The notes: a model not told the origin generated them from the letters alone. Counted from the stretch's first letter, positions 18,124 through 62,530 are shown. The stretch is 64,000 nucleotides of DNA from Spirochaetota bacterium (GCA_016933025.1 JAFGBT010000006.1:155078-219077); one strand, 5' to 3'. Translations and numbers: made by a program.

Positions 18124-18163
18124 GCGCATGTGAGCGAGGTCACATGACCTCGCTCACATGCGC
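18124..18163 (+). terminator. 40-bp perfect palindrome GCGCATGTGAGCGAGGTCA CATGACCTCGCTCACATGCGC, 25 nt after the blc stop, followed by a T8 run
   Basis: Read directly; shares the GCGAGGTCACRTGACCTCGC core with the 13349 palindrome. Confidence 0.55.
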
Positions 18164-18292
18164 ACAAATAATCATTTTTTTTCGTCCTGGAACTTAAACG
18201 TATGCTCCACGTATTTCTTCCCGCCGCACCCCGAGAAAAATGAAACCGTAGCTTCAGAAATTCCGGGGCTCGCAGCGCTATCTACAGCCGAC

Positions 18293-23327: not shown

Positions 23328-24764
23328 CTACGCGTCCTTCTTAATGAGATTTTCGGGGTTCATCAATATCGTCGCCGTCACGTGCGAGCCGACGCCGGCA
23401 TGGCTGATTGCAAGACCGCGCTTTGCGCCCTTGACCTGAAGGTCCGTCCAGTCAGCGGGCTTCTGGCGGCCGAACGCCTTCCATCTCTTCTCGTCGCCGT
23501 GGACCTCCGCCCAGCGGTTCCAGAGATGGCACGCAATCTCGAACACCTGCATGATGCCGGTCGCGCCGACCGAGTGCATGCAGCCGATCAGTCCGCCGGA
23601 GATGTTTGACGGAAGCTTGCCCGGCTTGCCGGTTTTCGGGCTGGTGTGATAGCAGTCTCCTGACTCAACATAGTCGCGGCCGCAGCCGTAGGGCCGCAGC
23701 CCGATGTCCTCGTAGGTCTGTACGTCACTGATGGTGAAGGCGTCGTGCAGCTCGATGACGTCAAGGTCCTCGGTCGGATCCTTGATGCCGACCTGATTAT
23801 AGGCGTAGTACGCCGCCATACGGGCGGCCAGGAACCCGGTGAATCCCGGATAGCGCTCGCCGCCGGGGAATTTCTTGCCGAGGTCCTTGTACTGATCCTT
23901 GGTCTCGTTCGGCAGGAGCGGTATCTCCATGTCGCGCCGGTCCGCCGGCCGCAACGTGTGAGAACCCGCCGTCACCCATATCCGCAGCGGCTTGTGGGGA
24001 GCGTTCTTCGCGAGCTTCATCGCCGTCTCCTCATCGCAGAGAATTCCACACGAAGCGCCGACGCTCATCAGGCAGCAATCCAGAGCGCGAAGCGGGTGCG
24101 CCACCACCGGAGAGTTGAGCACGTCTTCAACCGTTATCTTCATCGGCCCGTGCGCGTAGGGATTCATGCGCGCGTAGCCGTGGTGTTTCACGGATATCTC
24201 CGCCAGGGTTCTCCGGAACGAGTCCTCCTCCTTGCCGAAGACCTTCCAGTACTTCTGCGCCATAACGGCATAGTAGCCCGTGTAAATATGGCCCAGCGGG
24301 GATTCCCAGTCCTTGTCGGCCGCGCATGATATGAGGAAGTTGCCCTCGTCCGTGGGGACCTCGTCCATCCGTTCCCAGCCCATGCAGAGCACGCAGTCGG
24401 AATAGCCGGATGCCACGGCCTTAACGCCCTCCCAGAGTGTTGTGCCGCCGGTCGCGCCGCCTGTTTTAACGCCGCAGTTGCCCAGCGGGTCGAGCCCGAG
24501 CCGGTCATGGATGACCGCCTCGCCGAGGAGCTGGTCGCCGAAATGGTCGGCAAAATGACCGTAGTAACAGGTGTGGATGTAACTCTTGAGCTCCGCCGGG
24601 GTCATGTCGATCATCTCCGCCGCCTGCGTGAGTGCATCGATGCAGAGCTCCTCCGTCCTTTTGCCCGGGAAGGCACGATCGAACTTCGACTGCCCCGCGG
24701 TCACCAGATAGACCGGCCGCATCAATTTAGGTATTGATAGTTGTCTGTCGCTGAATGTTATCAT
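23328..24764 (-). CDS. SCP2-type thiolase-like protein lacking the nucleophilic Cys (Ltp2-like retro-aldolase candidate)
   Basis: Thiolase fold (KTGGATGG...VASGYSDCVLCMGWERM; C-terminal ISGGLIGCMHSVGATG). Gly aligns with the Cys of paralog 30361-31518. Start uncertain (24764 or 24722). Confidence 0.75.
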   Translation of the reverse strand: MITFSDRQLSIPKLMRPVYLVTAGQSKFDRAFPGKRTEELCIDALTQAAEMIDMTPAELKSYIHTCYYGHFADHFGDQLLGEAVIHDRLGLDPLGNCGVKTGGATGGTTLWEGVKAVASGYSDCVLCMGWERMDEVPTDEGNFLISCAADKDWESPLGHIYTGYYAVMAQKYWKVFGKEEDSFRRTLAEISVKHHGYARMNPYAHGPMKITVEDVLNSPVVAHPLRALDCCLMSVGASCGILCDEETAMKLAKNAPHKPLRIWVTAGSHTLRPADRRDMEIPLLPNETKDQYKDLGKKFPGGERYPGFTGFLAARMAAYYAYNQVGIKDPTEDLDVIELHDAFTISDVQTYEDIGLRPYGCGRDYVESGDCYHTSPKTGKPGKLPSNISGGLIGCMHSVGATGIMQVFEIACHLWNRWAEVHGDEKRWKAFGRQKPADWTDLQVKGAKRGLAISHAGVGSHVTATILMNPENLIKKDA

Positions 24765-24854: not shown

Positions 24855-25241
24855 CTATACTTCCACCTCCGCCTCGACCTTCTGGAGCACCTCGACGCCG
24901 GTCTGCCTGGTGACTTTCAGGTCGACCTTTGCCCTGTTGCCCTGTATGTCTGACACGGCGCCCTCTATCGATATCGTGTCCTCGAGCATCACCGGCGCGC
25001 TGAACCGGCACCTGATCTTCTTGAGCTTGCCCGGATCGCCCGCCCAGTCGGTGACGGTCTTTGCCGCAAACGCGAGGGTGCAGAGACCCTGTAAAATTGC
25101 TCCGCCCAGGCCGACCATCTTGCCGAAATCCGGGTCGATGTGGATCGGGTTGAAATCTCCTGACGCGCCGGCATAATATATGGCCCGGTATTTATCGACT
25201 TTCTCGCTGCCGCTGAATGTCTCTCCTTTTTCGATAGCCAT
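24855..25241 (-). CDS. MaoC-like (R)-specific enoyl-CoA hydratase, C-terminal hot-dog subunit
   Basis: Motif GDFNPIHID; start at the internal ATG with AGGAGG RBS. Confidence 0.75.
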   Translation of the reverse strand: MAIEKGETFSGSEKVDKYRAIYYAGASGDFNPIHIDPDFGKMVGLGGAILQGLCTLAFAAKTVTDWAGDPGKLKKIRCRFSAPVMLEDTISIEGAVSDIQGNRAKVDLKVTRQTGVEVLQKVEAEVEV

Positions 25242-25252
25242 GGGCGTTCCTC

Positions 25253-25690
25253 CTACTTTCTCACCACAAAAGTGTATAACCCCCGGCACACGCTCCTGCC
25301 GTGCTGGTTCTTCGAAATCCCCTCGATGGTTATAACATCGAGCTTCTCCTTGTTCCTGATATCGCTGATTTTCGCCGTCGTGGTGATGGCATCGCCGGCC
25401 TTCACGACCTCGAAGAATTCGAACTCCTGCTCGCCGTGGACCAGCATCGCCATGTTCAGGTTAAGCTCGCTGTCCAAGAATATTGGCTCGATCAGATACG
25501 CGCCGAACACGACCGCGAAGGTCGGCGGAGCAATGATCGCGCCATATTTCGATTTTTTCGCAAACGCCTCGTCCATGAAATGGGGATCCTGGTTCTTGAT
25601 GGCCTTGGCGTACTCCTTGATCTTGTCCTTGCTCACATCGTAGGTGTACGACGGATACTCCTTGCCGATGAACTTCGTGTCTATTGCCAT
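25253..25690 (-). CDS. MaoC-like dehydratase N-terminal-type hot-dog subunit
   Basis: Hot-dog fold with HGEQEFEF; pairs with the adjacent C-terminal-type subunit. Confidence 0.7.
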   Translation of the reverse strand: MAIDTKFIGKEYPSYTYDVSKDKIKEYAKAIKNQDPHFMDEAFAKKSKYGAIIAPPTFAVVFGAYLIEPIFLDSELNLNMAMLVHGEQEFEFFEVVKAGDAITTTAKISDIRNKEKLDVITIEGISKNQHGRSVCRGLYTFVVRK

Positions 25691-25753: not shown

Positions 25754-26929
25754 TCATTTCCCTCCGTACTTCCTTATCAAGTCCTTGGCGATCAATATCC
25801 GCTGGATCTCCGACGTTCCCTCGCCGATCTCGCCAAGCTTGGCGTCGCGGTAAAGCCGCTCCACCGGGAACTCCTTGATGTACCCGTACCCGCCGTGGAC
25901 CTGGACCGCCATGCTCGAAATCTGCGTCGCCGCTTCGGAGGCCCAGACCTTGGCCACGGAGGCCAGCACGGCGGCCTCGGGGTCCTTCATCTGCTTGGCC
26001 CACGCCGCCTGATAGATGAGGAGGCGCGCCACGTCTGTCTGAATCATCATGTCCGCGATCTTGAATGAAATCTCCTGATAGCGGTTTATCGGCCTGCCGA
26101 AGGCCTTCCGCTCCTTGGAGTACTTGTTTGCCAGCTCCAGGCACTTCGCCGCGATCCCGAGGCACACGGTGGCCATGCCTATCCTGCCGTACTCGAGGGT
26201 CTGCATCGCCTGGATAAAGCCCCTCCCCACCTCGCCGAGAACGGCGCCCGCGGGCACCTCGCAATCCTCGAAGATTAGCTCTGCCGTGGGCGAGCCGCGG
26301 AAGCCCATCTTGTCGAAGGGCTTGCTCACGGAAAACCCCTTCGTGCCCTTGTCAACCAGGAAACAGGTAACGCCTGCGCCCGGCCCCTTCTCCCGGTCAT
26401 TGTAAGCGAAGACCAGTGCCACGTCCGCGATCGTCGCGTTGGTTATGAAGGTCTTGGTGCCATTGATTACCCACCGGTCCCCCTTCTTCACGGCGTTCGT
26501 CTTGATGGAGGCCGCGTCGGTGCCGGCCTCCGGCTCGGTTAGACCGAAACAACCTAAGATCTCGCCCTTGATGATGCCGGGTATATACTTCTTTTTCTGG
26601 GCCTCGCTGCCGAAGAACCGAAGCGGCATGCCGAAGAGGCCTGACGAGGCCCCGCAGGAAAGGAAAGTCGAGGCGCACGCCTTGGCAACCTCCTCCCCCG
26701 CTATCGCCTGGCTGATCAGATCAAGGTCGGTGCCGCCGTACGCCTCCTCGTGGCCCATGCCGAGATAGCCGATATCCGCGAGCTTTCTGATGTTCTCCTT
26801 GATGAGTTTGTCAACGTCATCATGGGACGCCTGGTCGAGCATCTGGGCGCGCGGCTCGATCTCCTTCACGCAGAATTTTACAAAATTTTCCTTTATTGAT
26901 AACTGCTCGGATGTCAGATCGTAATTCAT
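25754..26929 (-). CDS. acyl-CoA dehydrogenase (catalytic Glu present: IGEGTSEIQ)
   Basis: Full ACAD architecture, 391 aa. Confidence 0.9.
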   Translation of the reverse strand: MNYDLTSEQLSIKENFVKFCVKEIEPRAQMLDQASHDDVDKLIKENIRKLADIGYLGMGHEEAYGGTDLDLISQAIAGEEVAKACASTFLSCGASSGLFGMPLRFFGSEAQKKKYIPGIIKGEILGCFGLTEPEAGTDAASIKTNAVKKGDRWVINGTKTFITNATIADVALVFAYNDREKGPGAGVTCFLVDKGTKGFSVSKPFDKMGFRGSPTAELIFEDCEVPAGAVLGEVGRGFIQAMQTLEYGRIGMATVCLGIAAKCLELANKYSKERKAFGRPINRYQEISFKIADMMIQTDVARLLIYQAAWAKQMKDPEAAVLASVAKVWASEAATQISSMAVQVHGGYGYIKEFPVERLYRDAKLGEIGEGTSEIQRILIAKDLIRKYGGK

Positions 26930-26975: not shown

Positions 26976-28127
26976 TTAGAACATGCTCAGAATCCGGGAT
27001 ATGATAAAGCGCTGGATTTCCGACGTGCCGCCGCCTATCTGCGCCAGCTTGGCGTCGCGGAGGAACCGCTCGATCGGATAATCGTGGATGTAGCCGTATC
27101 CGCCGAAGACCTGGGTCGCCTCGCTGGCGGCCTTCACGCCCCAGTCGCCGACCAGCGCCTTGGCGATGGAGGTATGCATGTGGTTAAGGGGCTTCCCTGA
27201 ATCTTTGTCGAAAGCGACACGATAGACCACCATCTTCGCCGCTTCCTTTATGATCCTGAGGTCCGCCAGCTTGTGCTGGATCGCCTGAAACGAGCCGATC
27301 GGCTTGTCGAACTGCACCCGCTCCTGCGCGTACTTCGTGCACTCCTCTATCGCGAACTGCATTCCGCCAACGAAGGGGGAGAGGAGCGAGCTCCGGTCCC
27401 AGGAGAGCGTCTCATGGGCGTACTCCATCCCCTTCCCGACCTCGCCGATCAGGTTCTCCTCCGGGACCTCGCAGTTGTCGAGGAACACCTCGGAAGTCGA
27501 CGAGGCCCGTACGCCCATTTTGTGAAACGGCTTGCCCGTGGAAAAGCCTGGGAACCCGCGCTCCACGATGAAGGCGGCGATGCCGTTATGCTTCAGCTTT
27601 TTATCGATCGTCGCGTAGACCACGCATATGTTGCAGACCGGCGCGTTGGTTATGAAGGTCTTGGAGCCGTTGAGCATCCAGCGGTCGCCCTTCTTGACCG
27701 CTGTGGTCGACATTGCGGCTGCGTCGGAACCCGACCCGGGCTCGGTGAGACCCATGCAGCCTATCCACTCGCCGCTTGCAAGCTTGGGCACGTATTTCTT
27801 TCTCTGAGAGTCGTTGCCCTGCTTGTACAATGTGTCGGTGCAGAGATAGGTGTGTGCGCCCAGCGCCAGCAGGTGCCCCTGGTCGACGCCGGCGTGGCCG
27901 AGGGCCTCCCCCGCGAGGCAGCAGGTGACGACATCCGCACCAGAGCCGCCGAGCTCTTCAGGGAACGGAAGCCCCAGAAGCCCCATCTCCCCCAGTTTGC
28001 CCCAAACTTCAGGTGAAAACTCCGACTTGAGATCGGCCTCCTCGACGAGCGGAACGATCTCCTTCTTCGCGTACCGGTACACCGTCTCTCTGAACATCAA
28101 TTGCTCTTCAGTAAACCCAAACTCCAT
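26976..28127 (-). CDS. acyl-CoA dehydrogenase-like subunit with Gly replacing the catalytic Glu (IGGGTSEIQ)
   Basis: ACAD fold; motif substitution read directly; start at the internal ATG with AGGAGG RBS. Confidence 0.85.
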   Translation of the reverse strand: MEFGFTEEQLMFRETVYRYAKKEIVPLVEEADLKSEFSPEVWGKLGEMGLLGLPFPEELGGSGADVVTCCLAGEALGHAGVDQGHLLALGAHTYLCTDTLYKQGNDSQRKKYVPKLASGEWIGCMGLTEPGSGSDAAAMSTTAVKKGDRWMLNGSKTFITNAPVCNICVVYATIDKKLKHNGIAAFIVERGFPGFSTGKPFHKMGVRASSTSEVFLDNCEVPEENLIGEVGKGMEYAHETLSWDRSSLLSPFVGGMQFAIEECTKYAQERVQFDKPIGSFQAIQHKLADLRIIKEAAKMVVYRVAFDKDSGKPLNHMHTSIAKALVGDWGVKAASEATQVFGGYGYIHDYPIERFLRDAKLAQIGGGTSEIQRFIISRILSMF

Positions 28128-28184
28128 GCGCTCCTCCTTTGTAATACGGTCCGGGACGGACAACGCGCTCCGTCACCAACCCGG

Positions 28185-28811
28185 CTATTTCTTCTTTATG
28201 ACCAGATCGTTAATATGCTTCATGATCTTTTTCACGTAATCCTCATAATTGAAGGCGTTGTTGTCTATGACGTACTGTATAATCATGCCCTGGATGATCG
28301 AGATTATCACGGCCGCCGTGTAATCCAGGTCCATCTTCATGAAGATGCCCTTGTCAATCCCCTCGTTGAGGATCTTTATGATCTCGTCCCGGTAGCTCTT
28401 GAAGAGCTTGATATTCGCCCGCTTCATCCGCTCGTTCTTGTTGACCTGGGTCCAGAAATCGATGACGATGTAGAAGTAGTCTTTCTCGTTCTTCACCAGG
28501 TCAAAGGCCTGCATCATGAAGATGTTGAGCTTCTCTCTCGGGTCTTCCGCCTTGCCAATGGCCTTGTTCAGGATGGCCGTCATGTTGGTGTTGATTTCCT
28601 TTAACAGATTAAGGAGAAGGTCCTCCTTGTTCTTGAAATAGTAGTGAACCAGGCCTGTGGACAGACCCGCCTCACGCGCGATATCGCGGATGGTGAAATC
28701 ATAATACCCCTTCTGTCCCACGACCTTATATGCTGCGCGCGTCAGCTGCCCTCGCCTCATATTCATGATGTCGCTCTTGGTTTTCTCGTTCATGGCTGCA
28801 ATCACTCCCAT
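28185..28811 (-). CDS. TetR/AcrR family transcriptional regulator
   Basis: HTH TIRDIAREAGLSTGLVHYYFKNKEDL. Confidence 0.85.
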   Translation of the reverse strand: MGVIAAMNEKTKSDIMNMRRGQLTRAAYKVVGQKGYYDFTIRDIAREAGLSTGLVHYYFKNKEDLLLNLLKEINTNMTAILNKAIGKAEDPREKLNIFMMQAFDLVKNEKDYFYIVIDFWTQVNKNERMKRANIKLFKSYRDEIIKILNEGIDKGIFMKMDLDYTAAVIISIIQGMIIQYVIDNNAFNYEDYVKKIMKHINDLVIKKK

Positions 28812-28865: not shown

Positions 28866-29738
28866 TCACTCAAGGACCTCGACTCCCGCGCCCTCGAGCA
28901 GGGCGGCGCGTCCGCTCCACTCGTTCTCCTGCACCCACCGGCCGTCCGATCCCGGGGGATATTCCCCGAGAAAGGCTTTCTCCTCGTTCGGCCGCGTCCC
29001 GCCTACGATGACGGCCCTTCCCGCAGCTCGCTCAACCCTGAACGGGTCGATGATAATGAAGCCTATATCATCATGCTCGAACTCTCCCCTGTTCGCATCG
29101 AGGACGCCGTGCATCCGTTCGCACACGCACTCACCGGGAGCCGCGTCGAGGAGCGTGCGCTCCCCTGAAAAAAGGGAGCGACCGGCGCAGTAACGAAGCA
29201 GGTCGTCGAAGCCGTCGGTCGCCAGAATCAGCCTGCTGTCACGGTTTGCCACTCGGTGCTCGGTGACGCCTGCGATCTCCATGCTCCTCCCCGCAAAATT
29301 CATGTCTGGCGCCGTCCGAAATTCAACGGCGCCGCCGGCAGGATCGACCAGCGTCACCACGCTGTCCCCGCCGTGTGACACGATCAGGGTCACCCCCGCT
29401 TCATCGTTCGCGAGGGCGACGCAGCTCAGGGTGGTCTTGTGCTGAAATTTCTGTTCCGAATATACCTCGCCGTTTATCAGCTCCTTCCACTCCTCCGCGG
29501 TCCCGGGCGCGCCGCTCCGGACCAGGCACTTCCACAACCGCCGCAGCAGGTCGCGCGACGCCCAGGGAAAACGCTCGGTCCCGTCCGCCACGGCGAATAC
29601 CATCCTCCCGAAATCGAGGTACAGGCAATCGCCGTTCCCGTATCCGCTCCGAATCTTTTCTGTGCCCGTTATGACCGACCCGCATGCCGCGCCTGTCTGC
29701 CTCACGATGCGCCTCGATGGACTGATCTCTATCGCCAC
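28866..29738 (-). CDS. PP2C/PPM-like phosphatase-fold protein (degenerate motifs), function unknown
   Basis: FAVADGTER, SHGGDS, LILATDGFDDLL resemble PPM motifs; weak assignment. Confidence 0.4.
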   Translation of the reverse strand: MAIEISPSRRIVRQTGAACGSVITGTEKIRSGYGNGDCLYLDFGRMVFAVADGTERFPWASRDLLRRLWKCLVRSGAPGTAEEWKELINGEVYSEQKFQHKTTLSCVALANDEAGVTLIVSHGGDSVVTLVDPAGGAVEFRTAPDMNFAGRSMEIAGVTEHRVANRDSRLILATDGFDDLLRYCAGRSLFSGERTLLDAAPGECVCERMHGVLDANRGEFEHDDIGFIIIDPFRVERAAGRAVIVGGTRPNEEKAFLGEYPPGSDGRWVQENEWSGRAALLEGAGVEVLE

Positions 29739-29751
29739 AGGCCCCCTGCCG

Positions 29752-30216
29752 TCAGTCTATGACCCTGAAAAACTCTATGTCCCGGATGCTCCCCTTCGGG
29801 TTCATTGAAAAGACCGGCTCGACACGGGCGCCGATCCTGATCTTCTTCTCGTCCTCAACGCTGATATAATGCTGGAAAAGCGTGTCCGCTCCGTCCAGCC
29901 TGATGAAGCCGTATCCGTAGGGCACGGGCTTCTGATGACCCGTCTCCGGATCAATGAACGCGAACCGGAGGATCGTAAAGGTGCCGATGACGCCTCCCGG
30001 TCCCACCTCGACCCAGTCGTTCATCTCCACAAAGCAGTCGCCGCAGACGCCGCGCGGGGGAATGTAGACCTTTTTGCATTTCGGGCACCTGATACCCATG
30101 AACCGCCGGTTGTCCCGTATCTCGGTGAAAAATTTGCTCCCGTGCATCCCGATTGAATAGGTGAAGGGCTGCACCGCGTCGCCTGACTCAATAATGATAT
30201 GATTGCTGTCTGCCAT
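29752..30216 (-). CDS. DUF35 family protein (Zn ribbon plus OB-fold)
   Basis: CPKC...CGDC ribbon; OB-fold C-terminal half; GGAGG RBS at the trimmed start. Confidence 0.8.
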   Translation of the reverse strand: MADSNHIIIESGDAVQPFTYSIGMHGSKFFTEIRDNRRFMGIRCPKCKKVYIPPRGVCGDCFVEMNDWVEVGPGGVIGTFTILRFAFIDPETGHQKPVPYGYGFIRLDGADTLFQHYISVEDEKKIRIGARVEPVFSMNPKGSIRDIEFFRVID

Positions 30217-30240
30217 GATATTTCCTCCACTTTGCTCCAA

Positions 30241-30352
30241 TCTTTTCTCTTAAGCCCCCTCCGGGCGTTGCACTGAACGGTTCAACAGGCTTGTCCTGAG
30301 CTTGCCGAAGGGCTCACCACAGGCCTGTCGAAGTGGGGTTTGGGGGGATGGT
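30241..30352. repeat. G/C-tract modular repeat copy R5
   Basis: AAGCCCCCTCCGGG ... GTGGGGTTTGGGGGGATGG modules. Confidence 0.5.
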
Positions 30353-30360
30353 TCTCAGAA

Positions 30361-31518
30361 TCATTTCGGCTTCTTCCTGCCGTGAAGTATCATGTCTGTC
30401 CACCAGCACCCGCCGAATCCTGTGCTGAAGGCGAAATTTACGTCCGGCACCTGCCGGCCCTCGGCCTTACCCATCACCTGCATCGCGGCCTCTGCGCACC
30501 GGATAAGCCCGGTCGCGCCGATCGGGTTGCAGGATATAACGCCGCCGGACGGGTTAATGGGGAGCTCACCCCCCATGTCGGTATTCCCGTCCCAGATGTA
30601 CTGCGGCGCCTCGCCCGGGCCGACGATTCCCATGTCCTCTATCCAGATGAGCCCGCCGAACGAATAGGGCTGGTACAGCTCGATCACGTCCAGCTCCTTC
30701 CGGGGCTCTTTGATGCCGGTTTTCTTCCATATCTCCTGCGCGCCCTCCCGCATGCTGGTGAGGCGGCCGTAATCGGCGTCCCCCAGGTAGGTGTAGGAGT
30801 GACGCGCCGCGGTCGCCCATATCCAATCCGGCTTCGGCGCGATCTTCTCCGCGAGTTCCCCGCTCGCCATGATGACCGCGCAGGCGCCGTCCGTGCGCGG
30901 ACAGACGTCGAGTAGATGTATCGGGTCCGCCAGCATCGGCGACGCCAGGACCTCCTCCAGAGCCACCTCCTTGCGGAGCTGGGCGTGGGGATTGTTCATC
31001 GCATGCCTGCGGTCCCGCACGCTGACGCGCGCGCCGTCCCGATCGGTCGCGCCGTACCGTGCCATGTAGGCCTGCGCCTCGGCGGCAAGGCCCGATATGG
31101 CGCCGGCAAACACCAGGCGGTCCCATATCGGATCGAACGCCGTGGTGATGGCGCCGGTCGTGTCCGACTCTGAATTCTTCTCCCAGCCGATTATCAAAAC
31201 TTTATCGAACATGCCCGACGCCACAAGATGGTACCCGCCGATCGCCACGGTGCACCCGGTCGTCCCGCCGGTCGTGAGCTTGATGATCGGCTTCATGGTC
31301 CCGCCGGAGCCGTCAACGCTCCAGCAGTCGACATAGTTTATTCCCTCGAAATGGTCCATGTTGCCAATGACGACGGCGTCGATATCCTTCATTTTCAGGT
31401 CAGCATCTTGAAGGGCGCGCACCACCGCCTCGTTTATCAGCTCCTGCCCGTTGACGTCGGGGCGATGGCTCTTATGGAACGTCTGGCCGGTTCCTACAAT
31501 CGCAACTCGTTTTCCCAT
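30361..31518 (-). CDS. SCP2-type thiolase-like protein, subfamily A (Cys present at the nucleophile position)
   Basis: TTGGTTGCTVAIGG...LVASGMFD...IGWEK; C-terminal GGVISCNPIGATG. Confidence 0.85.
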   Translation of the reverse strand: MGKRVAIVGTGQTFHKSHRPDVNGQELINEAVVRALQDADLKMKDIDAVVIGNMDHFEGINYVDCWSVDGSGGTMKPIIKLTTGGTTGCTVAIGGYHLVASGMFDKVLIIGWEKNSESDTTGAITTAFDPIWDRLVFAGAISGLAAEAQAYMARYGATDRDGARVSVRDRRHAMNNPHAQLRKEVALEEVLASPMLADPIHLLDVCPRTDGACAVIMASGELAEKIAPKPDWIWATAARHSYTYLGDADYGRLTSMREGAQEIWKKTGIKEPRKELDVIELYQPYSFGGLIWIEDMGIVGPGEAPQYIWDGNTDMGGELPINPSGGVISCNPIGATGLIRCAEAAMQVMGKAEGRQVPDVNFAFSTGFGGCWWTDMILHGRKKPK

Positions 31519-31529
31519 GGCTTCTCCTC

Positions 31530-32672
31530 CTACCTGTCCCCCAGGAGCCAGACGCAGTGCGACTGGCCGCCCAGACCGTTCACCCCGTGGACGAGGCCCG
31601 TTCTCGCCTTCTTCACCTGAAAGCCGCCCGCTTCGCCCCTGATCTGCCTGACCACGGCGGCCATGCTGTACAGACCGGCGGCGATAACCGGATGACCCGA
31701 CAGGAGCCCGCCCGAAGGATTTACCGGAAGCCTGCCGTCAATATTGTACTCCCCTTTTTCAAGATGCCTTCCCGCCGACGATTCATCGGCGAGGCCCATC
31801 TCCTCGAGCCACATGAGCTCCTGGTAGGTAAAGGCGTCGTGTATTTCAGCAACATCGATCTCCGTGCGCGGGTCTTTTATCCCCGCCATCGCGAATGCCT
31901 TCTTCGCCGCCTCGGTGAGCGACCTGGCTCGCGAAAGATCCCGGTCACCGAAGAAAAAAGAGTCGGCGCAGAGAGATACTCCCCTGATCCACACCGGCTT
32001 CTTCCTGAATTTCTTCGCAACCGACTCATGGGCAATGACAACCGCCGCGCACCCGTCTGAGACCGGCGAGCAGTCGAGCTTTCGGAGCGGATCTGCTATC
32101 ATCTCGGAATCCAGGACGTCTTTAACCGTGATATCCATGGGGAGCTGGGCGTGAGGGTTCTTGAGCGCATTGCCGTGGTTCTTCACCGACACCATCGCCG
32201 TCTGCTCGCGCGTTGTCTTCGTCCGGTGCAGGTAGGCATTCGCCTGCATCGCGCACGCGGTAATCATGTCCATACCGAGCATCCGCTCGTAGATCGGGTC
32301 GAAGGCGCAGTTCGTTATCAGGCTCGACACGCTCTCCGATCCCTTGGAATGGCCCGTCACCAGGGTTGTTTTGTACGATCCCGAGAGGCACCTTGCCATG
32401 CCGTAAAAGGCGCCGTACGTTCCGTCGCCCTCCACGCAGGAGACGTTTTTGTGCGCGGCGCCGCTCGCGTCGCCGACGGCCATGCAGGATATCGTTCGCC
32501 CGTCCCAGAAATCGCTTGATGTGGTGACGACATTGTCGATGTCGTCGATGGTCATGCCGGCGTCCTCGAGAGCCCCGTTCACGGCCTGCCATGCCATGTC
32601 GGCAAAGGTCTCACGTACCTTCCTCTTCTCGATCTTGACCGTCCCGACGCCTACTATCGCTGCTCTGTCCAT
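31530..32672 (-). CDS. SCP2-type thiolase-like protein, subfamily B
   Basis: Thiolase fold (YGMARCLSGSYKTTLVTGHSKG...NPSGGLLSGHPVIAAG); 11-nt gap to the subfamily A partner. Confidence 0.85.
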   Translation of the reverse strand: MDRAAIVGVGTVKIEKRKVRETFADMAWQAVNGALEDAGMTIDDIDNVVTTSSDFWDGRTISCMAVGDASGAAHKNVSCVEGDGTYGAFYGMARCLSGSYKTTLVTGHSKGSESVSSLITNCAFDPIYERMLGMDMITACAMQANAYLHRTKTTREQTAMVSVKNHGNALKNPHAQLPMDITVKDVLDSEMIADPLRKLDCSPVSDGCAAVVIAHESVAKKFRKKPVWIRGVSLCADSFFFGDRDLSRARSLTEAAKKAFAMAGIKDPRTEIDVAEIHDAFTYQELMWLEEMGLADESSAGRHLEKGEYNIDGRLPVNPSGGLLSGHPVIAAGLYSMAAVVRQIRGEAGGFQVKKARTGLVHGVNGLGGQSHCVWLLGDR

Positions 32673-32687
32673 GTCTGCGCTCCTTTT

Positions 32688-33155
32688 CTATCGTACCGGC
32701 CTGAAATGGGATATATCGCGGATGGTCCCCTTCCGCTCTTCGGCGAAGACCGCCTTCACGCGCATGCCGATGCTCACGTCTTCCGGCTTAACATCGCCCA
32801 GATAATGGAGCAGGGCCGTGTCCGCGCCGTCCAGCTTCACCAGCCCCCAGATGACCGGCGCCTTCAGCTCCCGGGGAATTGACGCGAATTGCCGCCGGGC
32901 GACCGTGAACGAGAGAAGCGTCCCCTCATCGGATACATCCACCCACTCGGTATCGCCGGTGAAGCAGGCCGGGCAGCTCTTGCGCGGCGGGAGATACGTC
33001 TTCCCGCAGGTCATGCATCTCGTCGCGATGATTTTCTTCTCGTCCCTGAGAGAGATGAAAAACCTGGACGCCGTGTCCCCCGCCCACCATGAATAGGGGA
33101 TATTGATCATGCTCTCGTATACCATCGGCTCAATGCCCTTGAATTGGTCTGTCAT
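32688..33155 (-). CDS. DUF35 family protein (Zn ribbon plus OB-fold)
   Basis: CMTC...CPAC ribbon; OB-fold. Confidence 0.8.
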   Translation of the reverse strand: MTDQFKGIEPMVYESMINIPYSWWAGDTASRFFISLRDEKKIIATRCMTCGKTYLPPRKSCPACFTGDTEWVDVSDEGTLLSFTVARRQFASIPRELKAPVIWGLVKLDGADTALLHYLGDVKPEDVSIGMRVKAVFAEERKGTIRDISHFRPVR

Positions 33156-33175: not shown

Positions 33176-33272
33176 CTCACCCCCTTCCCCCTCTCCTCAA
33201 AGGAGAGGGGGAGAAGAAGAATATCGCATTCTTCTCCTCCCCTTCTTCCTGTGGGAGAAGGGGCCGGGGGAT
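33176..33272. repeat. G/C-tract modular repeat copy R6 (CCCTCTCCT CAAA GGAGAGGG and CCCCTTCTTCC TGTG GGAGAAGGGG hairpins)
   Basis: Read directly; same module style as R2 and R7. Confidence 0.5.
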
Positions 33273-33277
33273 GATGT

Positions 33278-34048
33278 CTATCTTCCTATAATATACCGGT
33301 GCGGGTCCACCTGCTCGCGGAGGATCCGCAGTTCATCCGCGTGCGGGGGCTCGGTATCCGTGAGCCTGTCGGCCCACATCAGCTCGAACCCGCAGTTCGC
33401 CTGGATGTCCTCCCGGTCATAGCCGGGATTGACGCTCAGAACCTTCATCCGCTTCGATATCTCATCGAACCCCATGATCGCCATGTTGGTGATGATCCGG
33501 TAGGGCCCGGTACCCTTCGGCAATCCCGCCTCGTAGCGGGAATTCCCGCCCTGCAGATAACCGGGCGAGGTGATGAAATCGCACTTTTCGGTGAATCGCT
33601 TGGCGTCCTGCGGGGTCATCATCATGGTCCTCCAGCAGAGGGAGGCCAGGTCGTTCGCCCCGCCCGATCCCGGAAAGCGGACCTTCGGCCTCGCGTGGTT
33701 ATCGCCGATCATCGTCGAGTTGATGTTGCCGTACATGTCGATCTGCGCGCCGCCCAGGAAGGTGTAGTCCACCATCCCGCGCTGGCATGTCTCCATCACG
33801 TCCGGCATGGAGCTGGCGAGTATCGCCTTGTGAAAGGTCCGCGAATCGCCGACGGATATCGGCATCGAGGGCAAAAACGGCGCCACGCCGCCCGCCTCGA
33901 ACATGATGGTGAGATTGGGCGAATGCGTCTTCTGCGCCAGCATAGCGGCCGCGCACGGGGCGCCGGTGCCGACCACGACCGTCGCGCCGTCCTCCAGGTT
34001 GCGCGCCGCAACGCATATCATCAATTCCATAGGGTTATAGTCTGCCAT
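33278..34048 (-). CDS. CoA-transferase subunit B (glutaconate/3-oxoacid CoA-transferase family)
   Basis: Family I CoA-transferase beta-subunit conservation (GGAQIDMYGNIN, SGGANDLAS). Confidence 0.8.
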   Translation of the reverse strand: MADYNPMELMICVAARNLEDGATVVVGTGAPCAAAMLAQKTHSPNLTIMFEAGGVAPFLPSMPISVGDSRTFHKAILASSMPDVMETCQRGMVDYTFLGGAQIDMYGNINSTMIGDNHARPKVRFPGSGGANDLASLCWRTMMMTPQDAKRFTEKCDFITSPGYLQGGNSRYEAGLPKGTGPYRIITNMAIMGFDEISKRMKVLSVNPGYDREDIQANCGFELMWADRLTDTEPPHADELRILREQVDPHRYIIGR

Positions 34049-34049
34049 C

Positions 34050-35054
34050 TCATTTCTCCTTGTTGTTCGCGACCAGGTTCTCGATGGCGCGAAGCTTCAG
34101 GATCCTTTCGATCCCGCCGTTCAGCTCCAGGTATTCGTAAAAGTCCTTCGTGTCGAGGATTTGCTTCCGGTAAAATTTCCTGAACTCTTCCGGGTCCTTC
34201 TCAACGGTGAGCCACTCCCTCAGGTGCTCCTCGTCGGAAAAATACTCGTAGGGCATGTTGCCGGGGTAGCTCCCGAAGGGGACCTCGACCACTGCGTCGA
34301 CGCACCAGAAGGGAATGAAGGTCGCATGGGGCGTATGCCTGATTTCATCGTTCGGTATGATCCGCTCAGTGGTCAGCACAACCCGCTTCGACGCCCGCGC
34401 AAGGTCCTGGTCGGACACGGACGCGCCTAAAACGCGGGCATTGCCGTACACGTCGCACTCATGCACGTGGATGGCGGCAAAATCCGGATAAAGCGCCGGG
34501 TATGCCGCGTATTTCTGCCCGGTAAAGGGACACAGTATCTCCTTCGCCGCGCTGTAGTTAAAGGTGTCGGTGCCGAGAATGTTGCGCGCCGGCAAAAAAG
34601 AGAGCCCCATCGCCGCCGCCTTGAGCCGCCACGAGAGCGTCGCGTTGGTCCACTCGGTGAGCTTGATATTCCCGCTCTCGACGGCGCGGCGGGAACTCGG
34701 CGAAAGGCCCCGCGCCTCCAGTCCTATGATGTAGGCGATGTCGAGACGGTCGATGCAGCCGCCCCCGACCAGGATCTGCATGTCATGGGTCGAGGTATGG
34801 CCGGCAAAGGCCAGATTTTTCTTCCCCTGACGCGCGATCTCATGAAGAACGGCGGTCGGGATCCTGTTGGCCCCGAACCCGCCGATGGCTATGTAGTCCC
34901 CGTCTTTCAACAGGGTCTTCACGGCCTCCCGCACCGTAGTGACCTTGTTCACCATGGCGCGCGACTTCTGCCTGAAAAATTGACGCGCGGCGTCGGCATC
35001 CGGGTCGGAGAACAACTGGTTCCGGCCTTCCTTCAATTCAACTGGATTGCTCAT
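34050..35054 (-). CDS. CoA-transferase subunit A (GctA-like)
   Basis: GctA-like length and motifs (IAIGGFG...); 1-nt gap to subunit B. Confidence 0.8.
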   Translation of the reverse strand: MSNPVELKEGRNQLFSDPDADAARQFFRQKSRAMVNKVTTVREAVKTLLKDGDYIAIGGFGANRIPTAVLHEIARQGKKNLAFAGHTSTHDMQILVGGGCIDRLDIAYIIGLEARGLSPSSRRAVESGNIKLTEWTNATLSWRLKAAAMGLSFLPARNILGTDTFNYSAAKEILCPFTGQKYAAYPALYPDFAAIHVHECDVYGNARVLGASVSDQDLARASKRVVLTTERIIPNDEIRHTPHATFIPFWCVDAVVEVPFGSYPGNMPYEYFSDEEHLREWLTVEKDPEEFRKFYRKQILDTKDFYEYLELNGGIERILKLRAIENLVANNKEK

Positions 35055-35105: not shown

Positions 35106-36947
35106 TTATTTCTTTTCGAATAAACCATCCGCTGCCTCTTTCGCGTACATCTCTTCGATGAGGTCCCTGTACTTCTCCTGTACCACTTTGCGCTTGACCT
35201 TCAGCGACGGGGTAAGCTCGCCGCCGTTCTGCGAAAACTCGGTCTTGATGATCCTGAACTGCTTTATTCCCTCGTACCTGGCGAGGTGCGAGTTACGCTC
35301 ATCCACGTGCCTCTGCACAACCGATAGAAACTTCTGATCGTCCAGGAGGCCGGCCGGATCCCCGAAGGCGATGCCTTCCGCCTTCGCGATTCGCGCGGCC
35401 TCCTCGATGTTGATGTTGCACAGGCCGGTCAGGTACTTCCTCTTCTCGCCGATGACGATAAACTGCGTGAACAGCGGGTCCGATTTGAAGAGATTCTCGA
35501 TCTTCTGGGGCGCGACGTTCTTCCCGCCCGAGGTGATAATCAGGTCCTTCTTGCGGTCGGTGATGAGAAGGTTCCCCTCGTCATCGAACATGCCGATATC
35601 GCCCGACATGAAATAGCCGTCGGGGGTGAATGCGTCTTTCGTCTCGTCCGGAAGCTTCCAGTAGCCCCTGATGACATTCCCTCCCTTGATTAAAATCTCC
35701 CCGTCGTCCGCAATTTTGATATCCTCTCCCGGAATCGGCTTACCGGTGGTCCCGATCCGGTAATCGGCGAGGGACTGCATGGTGGCCGGCGCGGTCGTCT
35801 CGGTCATGCCGTACCCCTGGATGACGGTGATGCCGGCGGCGTTGAAGAAGCGGATGATCTCCTCGGCCGTGGGAGCGCCGGACGCGGTCATCCAGGTGAC
35901 CCGCCCTCCCAGCTTGTCCTGGAGCTTCTTGAAAATCATGGCGTAGGCGATCCTGTATTTCAGCTTCAGCCAGAATGGTATGCGCCTGTGCATCTCCCGG
36001 CGCCTGCTGATCCTGCTGCCGACCTTCTGTCCCCAGTAGAACACTCTCTGCTTGAAGGCGGACTGCTCCTGCACCTGCGCCATGATCTTCTGGTAGACCT
36101 TCTCGCAGACGCGGGGCACGGCCAGGATCATGGTGGGCCGCCTCTCCTCGAAGTCGGCCAGCAGGGTGTCGATGCTCTCGGCGTACGAGGCCGTGATGCC
36201 GCAGTACATGCCGTAGAAGTGCCCTGCGATCCGCTCGAACACGTGTGAGAGCGGGAGGAAGGGAACGGTGCAGTCCGTATCCGAGGCAAAATGCGGCCGG
36301 ATCGCGTCGAGCGACTGGACCACCCAGAAAATGTTCCCATGACTGATCATCGCGCCCTTGGGGAGTCCGGTCGTCCCAGAGGTATAGACCAGGGTCGCCA
36401 GGTCGTCCGGACCAACATCGGCCGCCAGCTTCTCGAACAGGTTCCGGTCCGCCTCCTGTTGTTTGCGTCCCAGCTCCATCAGCTCATTGAAGGAAATCAC
36501 CTTCGGGTTCGACCTGTCCGCGTCGCCATCCTCCATGACGACAATCTTCTCCAGTTTCGGGCATTTATCCGCTATCTCGAGTATCTTGGTCAGCTGGTTC
36601 TTATTTTCAGATATGATTATTCTTGATTCCGAATTGTTGAGGATGTATTCTATCTCCTCGGCCACCAGCGTCGGATATACCGGTATGAGGACGCCGCCGA
36701 TTCCCATGATCCCCATGTCGGAATACAGCCACTCGAGGCGGTTCTCGGAGAGAAGAGCCACCATGTCCCCCTTCCGTATGCCGAGATAATACAGGCCGAG
36801 GCCGGTCGCGCGCGCCCGTTCATAATATTCGTTCCAGGAAGCGCCGTGCCAAACGCCTTTCAGTTTTTTCTCTATCGCAAGTCTGTCGCCGTATTTCTCA
36901 ACGCGATTGCGGAAAACATCATTGACGGTCCTTTCTGCTGATTCCAC
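35106..36947 (-). CDS. long-chain-fatty-acid--CoA ligase (AMP-binding)
   Basis: AMP-binding motif TSGTTGLPKG; 613 aa, FadD-like. Confidence 0.85.
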   Translation of the reverse strand: MESAERTVNDVFRNRVEKYGDRLAIEKKLKGVWHGASWNEYYERARATGLGLYYLGIRKGDMVALLSENRLEWLYSDMGIMGIGGVLIPVYPTLVAEEIEYILNNSESRIIISENKNQLTKILEIADKCPKLEKIVVMEDGDADRSNPKVISFNELMELGRKQQEADRNLFEKLAADVGPDDLATLVYTSGTTGLPKGAMISHGNIFWVVQSLDAIRPHFASDTDCTVPFLPLSHVFERIAGHFYGMYCGITASYAESIDTLLADFEERRPTMILAVPRVCEKVYQKIMAQVQEQSAFKQRVFYWGQKVGSRISRRREMHRRIPFWLKLKYRIAYAMIFKKLQDKLGGRVTWMTASGAPTAEEIIRFFNAAGITVIQGYGMTETTAPATMQSLADYRIGTTGKPIPGEDIKIADDGEILIKGGNVIRGYWKLPDETKDAFTPDGYFMSGDIGMFDDEGNLLITDRKKDLIITSGGKNVAPQKIENLFKSDPLFTQFIVIGEKRKYLTGLCNINIEEAARIAKAEGIAFGDPAGLLDDQKFLSVVQRHVDERNSHLARYEGIKQFRIIKTEFSQNGGELTPSLKVKRKVVQEKYRDLIEEMYAKEAADGLFEKK

Positions 36948-37917: not shown

Positions 37918-39345
37918 TCATTTCTTCCTCAATCCCATGATCGCGCGGGCCTCGTCGCAGGTGGCAATCGGCCTGCCGAGACATTCGGCGACCCCGACCG
38001 CCACCTCGACCAGCTCGTAGCTGCCCTTGGCCAGCTCGCCGTTCGGCATCCTGATATTGTCCTCCAGGCCGACCCGCATGTGCCCGCCGAGGAGGCACGA
38101 CTGCATGATGCACGGAAACTCGTCGGTGCCGACGCCGCAGGTGGTGAAGTTCGCCTTCGGCGGGAGCGCGTTCATCATCGCTATGAAGGTCTCGGCCCTG
38201 AAGGCCTGGCCGCCGGCCACGCCCCAGACGAAATTGAAGTTCATCGGATCGGTGAAGAAACCCTGCTTCGAGATCAACATGGTGTTGTCGAGCCCCCCCA
38301 TGTCATAGCACTCGATCTCCGGCTTCACGCCGTTCTCCTCCATGGCCTTGCCGAAATCCTGCAGCATGGTAAAGGTGTTCTCGAACACGTAGTCGATGAA
38401 GATCTTTCCGGTCTTCCGGTCGATGATACTGAAATTCATCGTATTGGTGTTCAGAGACGCCATCTCGGGCTTGATCTCCACGATCTGGCTGATGCGCTGC
38501 TCGGCGGTCTTGCCCATGCCGACGGCCGAGCTCAGGTTCACGATCAGCTCCGGGCTCTTCTGCTTGATGGCGTCGTGGGTCGCCCGGATCCTGTCGATCT
38601 CGTGCGTCGCGAAGCCGTTGTCCATGCGCGCGTGCACGTGCACCATGGCCGCGCCCGCCTTCCAGCACTTGTGCGCCTCTTCCGCGAACTCCGCCGGCGT
38701 GTATGGGACGCTCGGGTTCTGGTTCTTCATGGTCGCCGCGCCGGTAAGGGCGGCGGTGATTATTACTGGCTTTGACATATCCGGTTTTCCTCCCCTTCGT
38801 TTTTCCTGAGTTTCAGGCTCGTCCGACGGAACCCATTGTTTACGCAACTTGCTGCGCTCGTGTACCGACAGCGTTTCAACCGCCGGCCTGAAGTGATCGA
38901 TGTCGAGAATGGTGCTCGTCGTTTTCTCGGCGAACACCGCCTCAACCTTCATCCCTATCTTGACGTCCTCTATCTTACACTCTTCGACAATATGCAAGAA
39001 GGGCGTGTCCGCGCCTTCCAGCTTGATGAGAGCGAGGACGAACGGCGCCTTTCGCGGCAGGTGCTTGTCGTCGTAGCGCACCACCGTGAAGTTCGTCACC
39101 GTTCCGCTTGAGCCCACTTCGACCCAGTTGTCCCGTATATCCGTTAAATCCTTGTCGCAGACCTGCCGCGGCGGCAGGTACACCATGCCGCAGGCCGGGC
39201 ACTTCACTCCCATTATCTTCTTCTTGTCCCGGATCGTCGTGATGAACTTGCTGCCGACGCGTCCGGCGAAATAGCTGTACGGGAGCGCCATCTTGCCTTC
39301 AATGATGTAGCTGTCTTCATATCCCTTTATTTGCTTATCTATCAT
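37918..39345 (-). CDS. fusion protein: N-terminal DUF35 (Zn ribbon/OB-fold) domain and C-terminal BKACE/DUF849 (3-keto-5-aminohexanoate cleavage enzyme-like) domain
   Basis: Single uninterrupted frame (the ORF track reports 37918-39453). N-half GVKCPACGMVYLPPRQVC plus OB-fold; C-half starts MSKPVIITAALTGA. Start chosen at ATG 39345 with TAAGGAG RBS, 11 nt after the upstream stop. Confidence 0.6.
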   Translation of the reverse strand: MIDKQIKGYEDSYIIEGKMALPYSYFAGRVGSKFITTIRDKKKIMGVKCPACGMVYLPPRQVCDKDLTDIRDNWVEVGSSGTVTNFTVVRYDDKHLPRKAPFVLALIKLEGADTPFLHIVEECKIEDVKIGMKVEAVFAEKTTSTILDIDHFRPAVETLSVHERSKLRKQWVPSDEPETQEKRRGGKPDMSKPVIITAALTGAATMKNQNPSVPYTPAEFAEEAHKCWKAGAAMVHVHARMDNGFATHEIDRIRATHDAIKQKSPELIVNLSSAVGMGKTAEQRISQIVEIKPEMASLNTNTMNFSIIDRKTGKIFIDYVFENTFTMLQDFGKAMEENGVKPEIECYDMGGLDNTMLISKQGFFTDPMNFNFVWGVAGGQAFRAETFIAMMNALPPKANFTTCGVGTDEFPCIMQSCLLGGHMRVGLEDNIRMPNGELAKGSYELVEVAVGVAECLGRPIATCDEARAIMGLRKK

Positions 39346-39356
39346 GTCCCGGCTCC

Positions 39357-40550: not shown

Positions 40551-40560
40551 GATTGTCCTC

Positions 40561-42918: not shown

Positions 42919-43019
42919 TACCAATCCTCCTCTCAATTCTTTTACGGCAACGGATCATGATAATACCACCTCGCATAACAGATTTGACATGGGCTTTGAT
43001 ATTGCCGCCTCGTGAATCT

Positions 43020-60886: not shown

Positions 60887-60902
60887 GCACCTCCCTTGTC
60901 CG

Positions 60903-62510: not shown

Positions 62511-62530
62511 CTCCAGAGATATAATATATA

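Follow-up and report, generated by a model that had tools for sequence, protein, structure and literature searches.

The stretch of DNA analysed here, hereafter called the window, comprises 64,000 nucleotides (nt) from a Spirochaetota bacterium (GCA_016933025.1, JAFGBT010000006.1:155078-219077). We focused on a block of four genes, named DUF35_1, B, A and DUF35_2, which is embedded in a long run of minus-strand genes and which encodes two thiolase-fold proteins bracketed by two DUF35 proteins. The features of this block are as follows, positions being counted from the first letter of the window.

32688-33155, minus strand: DUF35_1, a zinc-ribbon and OB-fold 'staple' protein of 155 amino acids (aa).
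31530-32672, minus strand: B, a thiolase-fold protein of 380 aa (B-type, Ltp4-like clade).
30361-31518, minus strand: A, a thiolase-fold protein of 385 aa (A-type, PRK08313-like clade), the probable catalytic subunit.
30217-30360, no strand assigned: the 144-nt spacer between A and DUF35_2, lineage-specific and outside the conserved module, which contains a dispersed G/C hairpin element in degenerate form.
29752-30216, minus strand: DUF35_2, a second, distinct zinc-ribbon and OB-fold protein of 154 aa, starting from an ATG behind GGAGG.

An earlier note on this DNA had described four open reading frames in this order and at these coordinates, with an 11-nt gap between B and A. Order, coordinates and gap were all recovered on the minus strand, and the peptides that it quoted are present. 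A Shine-Dalgarno sequence (GGAGGAG) in the B-A gap overlaps the stop codon of B, another is located directly on or after the stop codon of DUF35_1 at the DUF35_1/B junction, and the GGAGG preceding DUF35_2 lies 8 nt 5′ of its ATG. No terminator-like site was found within the block on the transcribed (minus) strand. Both A and B match Thiolase_N (PF00108) and Thiolase_C_1 (PF22691, the SCP2-like C-terminal type, with 101.2 bits for A and 126.6 bits for B), and both have the SCP2-like thiolase fold. B is 100% identical to a protein from a metagenome-assembled genome (MAG) labelled 'Spirochaetes bacterium'. The two DUF35 proteins pass the Pfam gathering thresholds of both expected families, PF01796 (OB_ChsH2_C; 64.5 bits for DUF35_1 and 46.5 bits for DUF35_2) and PF12172 (zf-ChsH2; 35.2 and 32.9 bits), and each contains a four-cysteine CxxC...CxxC zinc ribbon. 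The PDB relatives of DUF35_1 are SSO2064, the DUF35 domain of CtShy, the archaeal DUF35 protein and the DUF35 domain of ChsH2; those of DUF35_2 are SSO2064, PhlB and the archaeal DUF35 protein.

Residue positions in A and B were assigned by aligning both proteins with HMMER to solved thiolases (SCP2-type, archaeal and BbsB); these alignments are ungapped around the nucleophile helix, and invariance was scored in 121 close A sequences and 121 close B sequences. In A, the position of the nucleophilic cysteine (CxS/T motif, at the N-terminus of helix N-alpha3) is occupied by Gly85, the HDCF motif is replaced by Y282-Q-P-Y285 and the GHP motif by C330-N331-P332. Residues G85, Y282, P284, Y285 and N331 are invariant. 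In B, the nucleophile loop reads SCVEGDG and the cysteine position corresponds either to Glu81 or to a 3-residue deletion, depending on the aligner; B has kept GHP, together with an HDAF motif in which an alanine stands for the acid/base cysteine. C79, E81, D83 and H327 of B are invariant, and position 278, which is the histidine of HDAF in the window protein, is Tyr in 94, Ser in 19 and His in 7 of the 121 sequences. Because the catalytic thiolase residues are lost, neither A nor B can, as judged from these alignments, run thiolase acyl-cysteine chemistry. A canonical thiolase function was rejected on the same grounds, and the names given in databases ('acetyl-CoA C-acetyltransferase', 'propanoyl-CoA acyltransferase') are almost certainly wrong as functions. 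The 'SCP2-type thiolase' assignment of the earlier note has to be abandoned in the same sense, the nucleophilic cysteine being gone from both proteins and every canonical catalytic residue from A; the full catalytic triads for which it had allowed are found in neither A nor B by residue alignment.

The residues that replace the thiolase motifs in A recall those of steroid aldolases. In TcLtp2 (YDHF) and CtSal (YDCY), the catalytic base is a tyrosine at the first position of the HDCF-equivalent motif and the backbone of a glycine at the former cysteine site binds the substrate hydroxyl; the solved enzymes are homodimers with a DUF35 domain flanking each subunit (PMC12329534). The same combination, a glycine at the cysteine site and a tyrosine at the first position of the HDCF equivalent, is found in A, where both residues are invariant. 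The Ltp2-ChsH2 and Sal-Shy systems (PDB 6ok1 and 9myr) thus share with the block a Cys-less SCP2-thiolase fold with the Gly and Tyr pattern, a link to DUF35, and gene neighbours encoding heteromeric acyl-CoA dehydrogenases (ACAD) and MaoC hydratases. They differ in being homodimers with a single kind of DUF35, which is fused to the hydratase, and in having a second catalytic residue of their own (Tyr344 or Cys304) that is not present in A. Overall similarity is modest (E = 2e-29).

Relatives of A occur in 484 species genomes. The locus counts given here rest on the 80 best loci related to A, which come from three phyla and belong to Smithella and other Syntrophales, to Desulfobacterales (including the isolate Desulfosarcina widdelii PP31) and to Spirochaetota/Leptospirales. 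Of the 80 loci, 72 retain the order DUF35_1-B-A-DUF35_2 in full; seven of the remaining eight are cut by contig ends and the last has a split B gene. Such a gene arrangement is far beyond chance. The most conserved gene of the module is A, with a median identity of 87% to the window protein, as compared to 77% for B, 76% for DUF35_2 and 70% for DUF35_1. The median spacing across related loci is 26 nt between B and A and 18 nt between A and DUF35_2.

We then placed A and B among their distant relatives. Among 1.84 billion cluster representatives scanned with HMMER, 8022 relatives were found, and the full-length sequences among the best 150 of these (50%-identity representatives) were classed by their motifs, together with the five thiolase-fold proteins of the window, a number that the earlier note had counted correctly. 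This produced 50 A-type, 40 B-type and 19 canonical sequences, with 6 in none of these classes. A-type sequences have Gly at the cysteine site, Tyr (33 of 50) and Pro (29 of 50) in the HDCF equivalent, and Asn in place of the GHP histidine (40 of 50). B-type sequences have the 3-residue deletion and a conserved Asp-Gly, their other motifs being degenerate (Ser predominates at position 278 and Asn at position 327), and the canonical class has the nucleophilic cysteine, HDCF and GHP. The same three groups were obtained by identity-based average-linkage clustering of whole sequences, in which A clusters with members of PRK08313 and B with members of PRK07937. By motif and by clustering alike, A-type and B-type proteins form two old, separate clades, and A and B, which are 35% identical, are indeed distinct subfamilies, as had been proposed. 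The broad degeneracy of B-type motifs and the occasional shortening of B-type proteins to about 300 aa argue that these proteins work only with a partner. A B-type gene was found immediately upstream in every A-type locus examined. No B-A fusion was present among the best 150 representatives at 50% identity, where long hits correspond to thiolase-SCP2 and thiolase-double-DUF35 proteins. One natural fusion of 731 aa (P0448) joins a thiolase-fold domain to two DUF35 units. A is also matched by 593 plasmid records.

The closest parallels in gene organisation come from Actinobacteria. In the NCBIfam scan, none of the four module proteins reached a family cutoff: the best model for A is PRK08313 (363 bits versus a cutoff of 514), and B scores 189 bits against PRK07937 'lipid-transfer protein' (cutoff 419). 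By these scores A and B are relatives of the two families, not members. On a Tsukamurella plasmid, true members of both families (593 and 734 bits) lie side by side, the B-type gene first. The gene immediately before them encodes a protein of 309 aa in which two DUF35 units are joined, and an AMP-binding ligase and a crotonase are encoded next to them. Streptomyces clavuligerus harbours a fused double-DUF35 protein followed by a PRK07937 and then a PRK08313 protein, beside an acyl-CoA ligase. Both halves of the fused actinobacterial DUF35 proteins match DUF35_1 and DUF35_2. In Rhodococcus and Simplicispira, a shortened B-type gene of about 300 codons precedes the A-type gene and the DUF35 genes are separate. 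The order in M. tuberculosis is Rv3521 (conserved hypothetical protein)-ltp4-ltp3 (PMC6429209). PMC6273163, citing Wilbrink 2012, describes Ltp3 and Ltp4 as aldol-lyases that are required, along with FadD19, only when the sterol side chain is branched. The evidence for the roles of Ltp3 and Ltp4 is genetic, and for the biochemistry of Rv3521, Ltp3 and Ltp4 or for anaerobic (Sterolibacterium) equivalents, the literature yielded genetic statements only.

Operons of the Rv3521-Ltp4-Ltp3 type and the module share a B-type gene followed by an A-type gene, two DUF35 units, the lack of a nucleophilic cysteine, and an acyl-CoA ligase and a crotonase nearby. In contrast to the actinobacterial operons, the module has its DUF35 units as separate genes that flank the pair instead of one fusion, it is found in strict anaerobes and spirochaetes, and it additionally includes a PP2C-fold gene, described below. 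A shares about 39% and B about 30% identity with the actinobacterial proteins, and B keeps the GHP motif that most Ltp4-like proteins have lost. What is new here, relative to the poorly characterised Ltp4/Ltp3-type paired systems, is the split of the DUF35 genes, the anaerobic hosts and the linked PP2C gene. The view that paired thiolase-fold subunits with two DUF35 partners are not a textbook arrangement was overstated in the earlier note: pairs with two DUF35 domains are widespread and match Rv3521-ltp4-ltp3, and PhlABC and an archaeal complex provide solved precedents.

The PhlA-PhlC-PhlB acyltransferase (PDB 5m3k and 9skh) likewise contains two non-identical thiolase-fold proteins and DUF35 in one complex, and PhlC and PhlB are detectable among the PDB relatives of the module proteins. 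It differs in that PhlA is KAS-III-like and has a catalytic cysteine, in having one DUF35 species, and in being biosynthetic and CoA-independent. In the archaeal acetoacetyl-CoA thiolase/3-hydroxy-3-methylglutaryl-CoA (HMG-CoA) synthase/DUF35 complex (PDB 6esq), DUF35 staples two different dimers of the thiolase superfamily, and few solved proteins are closer to A and B than the archaeal thiolase (E of about 1e-38 to 1e-40); both catalytic partners keep their cysteine, however, the reaction is a condensation and there is one DUF35 species. The benzoylsuccinyl-CoA thiolase BbsAB (PDB 7pxp) also combines SCP2-type thiolase-fold and DUF35 subunits and also occurs in anaerobes, but its core is homodimeric and its BbsB subunit is a genuine Cys thiolase. 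The NCBIfam scores of the module proteins against BbsB (134 and 155 bits versus a cutoff of 750) and BbsA (24.6 bits versus 250) fall well below those cutoffs.

A systematic neighbour count over the 80 loci revealed an ACAD pair near the module in 50 and a FadD11-like acyl-CoA ligase in 48, the ligase being on the same strand and at most 2.5 kb upstream of the module in 44 of 60 loci. A TetR regulator is present in 47 loci, a fusion of DUF35 to a beta-keto-acid cleavage enzyme (BKACE) in 42 to 44, a CoA-transferase pair in 32 to 37, a crotonase in 23 and a MaoC pair in 22 to 23. Neither a 3-hydroxyacyl-CoA dehydrogenase nor carboxylase, mutase or fumarate-addition genes were found among the conserved neighbours of these loci.

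Taken together, these data lead us to favour, with a confidence that is real but limited, the reading that the four genes encode one multi-subunit Cys-less thiolase-fold lyase acting on carbon-carbon bonds, most likely a retro-aldolase, with A as catalytic subunit, B as degenerate partner and the DUF35 proteins as staples. Such a complex would cleave a carbon-carbon bond without covalent acyl-cysteine chemistry. The likeliest reaction would be the retro-aldol cleavage of a 3-hydroxyacyl-CoA into an aldehyde or ketone and a short acyl-CoA, as in Ltp2 and Sal and as genetically inferred for Ltp3/Ltp4. Catalysis would take place in A, where the invariant Tyr282, at the position of the catalytic tyrosine of the aldolases, is the probable base, and B could shape or enlarge the substrate pocket or bind a second ligand. 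DUF35_1 and DUF35_2 would staple the thiolase-fold subunits together, two different DUF35 proteins being needed because there would be two different thiolase-fold surfaces. The acyl-CoA substrate, probably derived from a branched or bulky acid, would be supplied by the adjacent FadD-like ligase or CoA-transferase and would then pass through the co-conserved heteromeric ACAD and hydratase. The PP2C-fold gene that lies behind DUF35_2 would also encode a part of this enzyme.

The heteromeric assembly of A and B with two DUF35 partners, which the earlier note had proposed, likely remains the best reading, because A and B are always side by side with two DUF35 units, DUF35 homologues occur as fusions, and B-type proteins are degenerate. 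An assembly of A2 and B2 bridged by DUF35 appears as plausible as an AB heterodimer, because the solved precedents, PhlABC and the archaeal thiolase/HMG-CoA synthase complex, consist of homodimers bridged by DUF35.

Several points weigh against a retro-aldolase of this composition. The physical assembly of A, B and DUF35 is deduced from genomics only. A does not have the second catalytic residue of the aldolases: Pro284 is found at the position of Cys304 of Sal, and Asn331 falls at or near Tyr344 of Ltp2, in a register estimated from coordinates only. No complete acid/base pair can therefore be named for A, the second residue of both characterised aldolases being missing. A and B are closer to archaeal and SCP2 thiolases (E of about 1e-40 to 1e-47) than to Ltp2 (2e-29 and 5e-21, respectively). 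B is highly conserved (median identity 77%, with C79, E81, D83 and H327 invariant) and could itself be active instead of serving as an inert partner. The presence of a tripartite ATP-independent periplasmic (TRAP) carboxylate transporter in one genome, without a nearby ligase, is equally compatible with a small free acid and with a bulky CoA ester. Finally, PRK07937 and PRK08313 were equated with Ltp4 and Ltp3 from family names, lengths and gene order and not from M. tuberculosis sequences, the length used being 353 residues for PRK07937 and 354 aa for Ltp4.

The strong conservation of B raises the alternative of two separate enzymes, DUF35_1-B2 and DUF35_2-A2, each with the alpha-beta-beta-alpha organisation of Ltp2 and Sal and catalysing two different, possibly consecutive, steps of a pathway; the genes would then lie together for no other reason than this common pathway. 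We regard this as unlikely, although the mirrored gene order, in which each DUF35 gene adjoins one thiolase-fold gene, the invariance of E81, D83 and H327 in B, and the homodimeric thiolase-fold cores of all solved DUF35 complexes (e.g. CtSal, PMC12329534) speak in its favour. The catalytic motifs are not conserved in the B-type clade, some members of which have only about 300 aa, and a B-type gene lies directly upstream at every A-type locus examined. Moreover, the fused DUF35 units would tie both putative enzymes together anyway.

The absence of the cysteine, combined with the retention of oxyanion-hole-type residues (GHP) in B, would also be compatible with a Cys-less thiolase-fold decarboxylase or another non-aldolase lyase, acting for example on alkylmalonyl-CoA or carboxy-acyl-CoA from the anaerobic catabolism of hydrocarbons or branched acids. 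Precedents exist in KS-Q and chain-length-factor domains and in the trypanosomal SCP2-thiolase-like protein; TbSLP (PDB 5ab4) is a Cys-less relative with a YDCF motif, and Smithella and Desulfobacterales are known degraders of hydrocarbons and fatty acids. Nevertheless, the conserved neighbours include no carboxylase, mutase or fumarate-addition genes, and the tyrosine of A together with the ACAD and hydratase neighbourhood better suits a hydration followed by retro-aldol cleavage, which makes a decarboxylase improbable.

A condensing or acyl-transfer assembly modelled on PhlABC and the archaeal complex, operating in the biosynthetic direction or free of CoA, seems quite improbable. PhlC, PhlB and the archaeal thiolase and DUF35 proteins are among the PDB relatives and provide solved cases of non-identical subunits bridged by DUF35, and the locus with a TRAP transporter instead of a ligase could be read in this sense. 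Both precedents, however, need an active-site cysteine on at least one subunit, of which A and B have none, and the neighbours (TetR, ACADs, hydratases, acyl-CoA ligase) are catabolic. Lastly, it is hardly credible that A and B are ordinary beta-ketothiolases, perhaps with a displaced cysteine (C79 in B; C89, C206 or C330 in A), as the source annotations, the fold with its Thiolase_N and Thiolase_C_1 domains, and the invariance of C79 and C206 in close orthologues might suggest: the canonical cysteine is missing in both proteins and both histidines in A, Cys89 was rejected as a displaced nucleophile because it varies (A, S or C) among the 121 close homologues, C330 is Thr in 6 of these 121, C206 also occurs in true SCP2 thiolases, where it is non-catalytic, and C79 is an unlikely nucleophile, being Lys or Arg in other B-type families.

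If the retro-aldol reading of the four-gene complex holds, it would point to an anaerobic route by which methanogenic and sulfate-reducing communities degrade branched or bulky carboxylic acids, and the metabolic reconstructions of Smithella, Syntrophales and spirochaete MAGs would have to be corrected. More generally, two large clades of Cys-less thiolase-fold proteins are paired with DUF35 partners in hundreds of genomes, and little is known of their biochemistry beyond ltp3/ltp4 knockouts in sterol degraders. A compact and highly conserved version in four small genes is present in the cultured isolate D. widdelii PP31, which is therefore a practical system for the study of assembly and substrate.

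The genes of the window that accompany the module are listed below.

41773-42936, minus strand: Thl387, B-type, first gene of a second, paralogous pair (order B then A).
40561-41760, minus strand: Thl399, A-type, of the same paralogous pair.
39357-40616, minus strand: SCP2-SCP2-DUF35 protein, after the Thl387/Thl399 pair.
37918-39453, minus strand: DUF35-BKACE fusion, of the same paralogous set.
35106-36947, minus strand: FadD11-like long-chain acyl-CoA ligase (Pfam and NCBIfam), a frequent upstream partner.
34050-35054, minus strand: subunit A of a family-I CoA-transferase, a facultative neighbour in about half of related loci.
33278-34048, minus strand: subunit B of the same CoA-transferase.
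28866-29738, minus strand: PP2C/PPM-fold protein X290 (290 aa), 13 nt after DUF35_2.
28185-28811, minus strand: TetR regulator, co-conserved.
26976-28163, minus strand: ACAD subunit without the catalytic Glu, co-conserved.
25754-26929, minus strand: ACAD subunit with the catalytic Glu, co-conserved.
25253-25690, minus strand: MaoC hydratase pair, one gene, co-conserved.
24855-25289, minus strand: MaoC hydratase pair, other gene, co-conserved.
23328-24764, minus strand: Thl478, a thiolase-fold protein of 478 aa with Gly at the nucleophile site, HDAF and His kept, and large insertions.

The PP2C-fold gene is the fifth conserved member of the module, because it is located directly behind DUF35_2 in 60 of the 65 loci with sequence there. 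Its product has 228 homologues, all of them 'hypothetical', and no family annotation; its score against Pfam SpoIIE is 20.3 bits, below the cutoff of 25 bits. The AlphaFold2 model of this protein (predicted local distance difference test score, pLDDT, 89.4; predicted template modelling score, pTM, 0.91) retrieved MspP, PstP, tPphA and SpoIIE as top Foldseek hits, with a probability of 1.0 and a TM score of about 0.5. The aspartates at positions 37, 52, 125, 175, 179, 223, 224 and 231 are invariant, with invariant aspartates lying in DG, DGxxD and DD motifs. The simplest reading of the modelled fold is that of a regulatory phosphatase dedicated to the complex. No kinase gene lies beside it. Around the island, the window contains partner-switching-type signalling genes encoding a response regulator-SpoIIE protein (18158-19468, plus strand), a 7TM-PAS-SpoIIE protein (47702-49519, minus strand) and a 7TMR-DISM-PAS-HATPase_c_2 protein (56180-58279, minus strand).

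In the ACAD pair, the Glu-less subunit reads IGGGTSEIQ, with Gly for Glu, versus IGEGTSEIQ, and of the two MaoC proteins one is a non-catalytic N-type subunit while the other carries the hydratase-2 motif. Sterol side-chain enzymes are known to have the heteromeric architecture seen in both pairs. An inactive subunit within a heteromer is a typical trait of enzymes that act on bulky or branched substrates (ChsE, ChsH and FadE pairs). By its gene content, the island fits a dehydrogenase-hydratase-aldolase route better than classical beta-oxidation, because it combines the ACAD and MaoC pairs with the absence of a hydroxyacyl-CoA dehydrogenase and of a Cys thiolase. The nucleophilic cysteine is missing from all five thiolase-fold proteins of the window, and there is therefore no canonical thiolase among them. 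The fifth of these proteins, Thl478, clusters with canonical thiolases and not with the A or B clades, and its gene is confined to spirochaete-type loci (8 of 80).

With SCP2-SCP2-DUF35 and DUF35-BKACE genes placed after Thl387 and Thl399, DUF35 could tether a lipid-binding module and a Claisen-type enzyme to the second pair. A broader proposal, which we put forward as speculation and consider doubtful, is that the module lies at the heart of an 'aldolytic' beta-oxidation island in strict anaerobes. All carbon-carbon cleavage would then be performed by Cys-less thiolase-fold heteromers, with an asymmetric DUF35_1-B-A-DUF35_2 particle having a single active site, a second B/A pair tethered by DUF35 to SCP2 domains and BKACE, and a dedicated PP2C control. 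If this were true, syntrophs and sulfate reducers would degrade branched or bulky acids (isoprenoid-, hopanoid- or steroid-like) without the 3-hydroxyacyl-CoA dehydrogenase and thiolase steps, and the function of Ltp3/Ltp4-type pairs would be revealed.

The surroundings of the module vary between hosts. In a deltaproteobacterial MAG (locus L045, 3125-10525), the five-gene module lies behind a TRAP transporter (DctP, DctQM) and a ligase is absent nearby. In D. widdelii (locus L069, 1-14284), it is flanked on one side by crotonase, short-chain dehydrogenase/reductase (SDR) and second ligase genes and on the opposite side by ferredoxin-like, DUF6989 and nitroreductase-like genes; a trio of nitroreductase-ferredoxin, ligase and SDR genes is also found in the window at 59864-63343. 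Over about 20 kb, the island shows 80-95% aa identity between Spirochaetota contigs (some of 1.7-4.8 Mb) and Smithellaceae/Syntrophales contigs, and this identity across lineages suggests that it was recently exchanged horizontally between co-resident anaerobes.

The spacer between A and DUF35_2 had been described as a G-rich repeat. It is not G-rich overall (39 G and 40 C in 144 nt) and contains one degenerate copy, with its core at 30335-30347, of a dispersed element close to GCCCCCCTCTGGGGGGTTTGGGGGG, that is, a 6-bp G/C hairpin followed by TTT and then by a G run. With at most one mismatch, the 13-nt core of this element occurs at seven distinct intergenic sites of the window (3915, 7854, 22660, 25733, 30335, 54515 and 54670), corresponding to nine overlapping matches versus 0.2 expected. 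The 144-nt spacer has no special fold as compared to shuffled sequence (z = 0.3). The gap between A and DUF35_2 measures 15-26 nt in most related loci, a few of which hold unrelated G/C-rich insertions. A role of the spacer repeat as a regulatory feature of the operon was rejected, as it shows no significant fold, is missing from most related loci and is a copy of a dispersed element.

One further feature separates the module from its upstream neighbours.

33208-33242, minus strand: perfect 16-bp G/C-rich hairpin GGGGAGGAGAAGAATGCGATATTCTTCTTCTCCCC between the CoA-transferase genes and DUF35_1, with no clear U tract.

This hairpin may mark the end of a transcript unit or serve as a processing site, and a transcript boundary here agrees with the module lacking the transferase in many genomes. 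Elsewhere, the window carries flagellar genes and three glucose-methanol-choline (GMC) oxidoreductase genes, at 1350-2720, 44688-46205 and 52602-54281.

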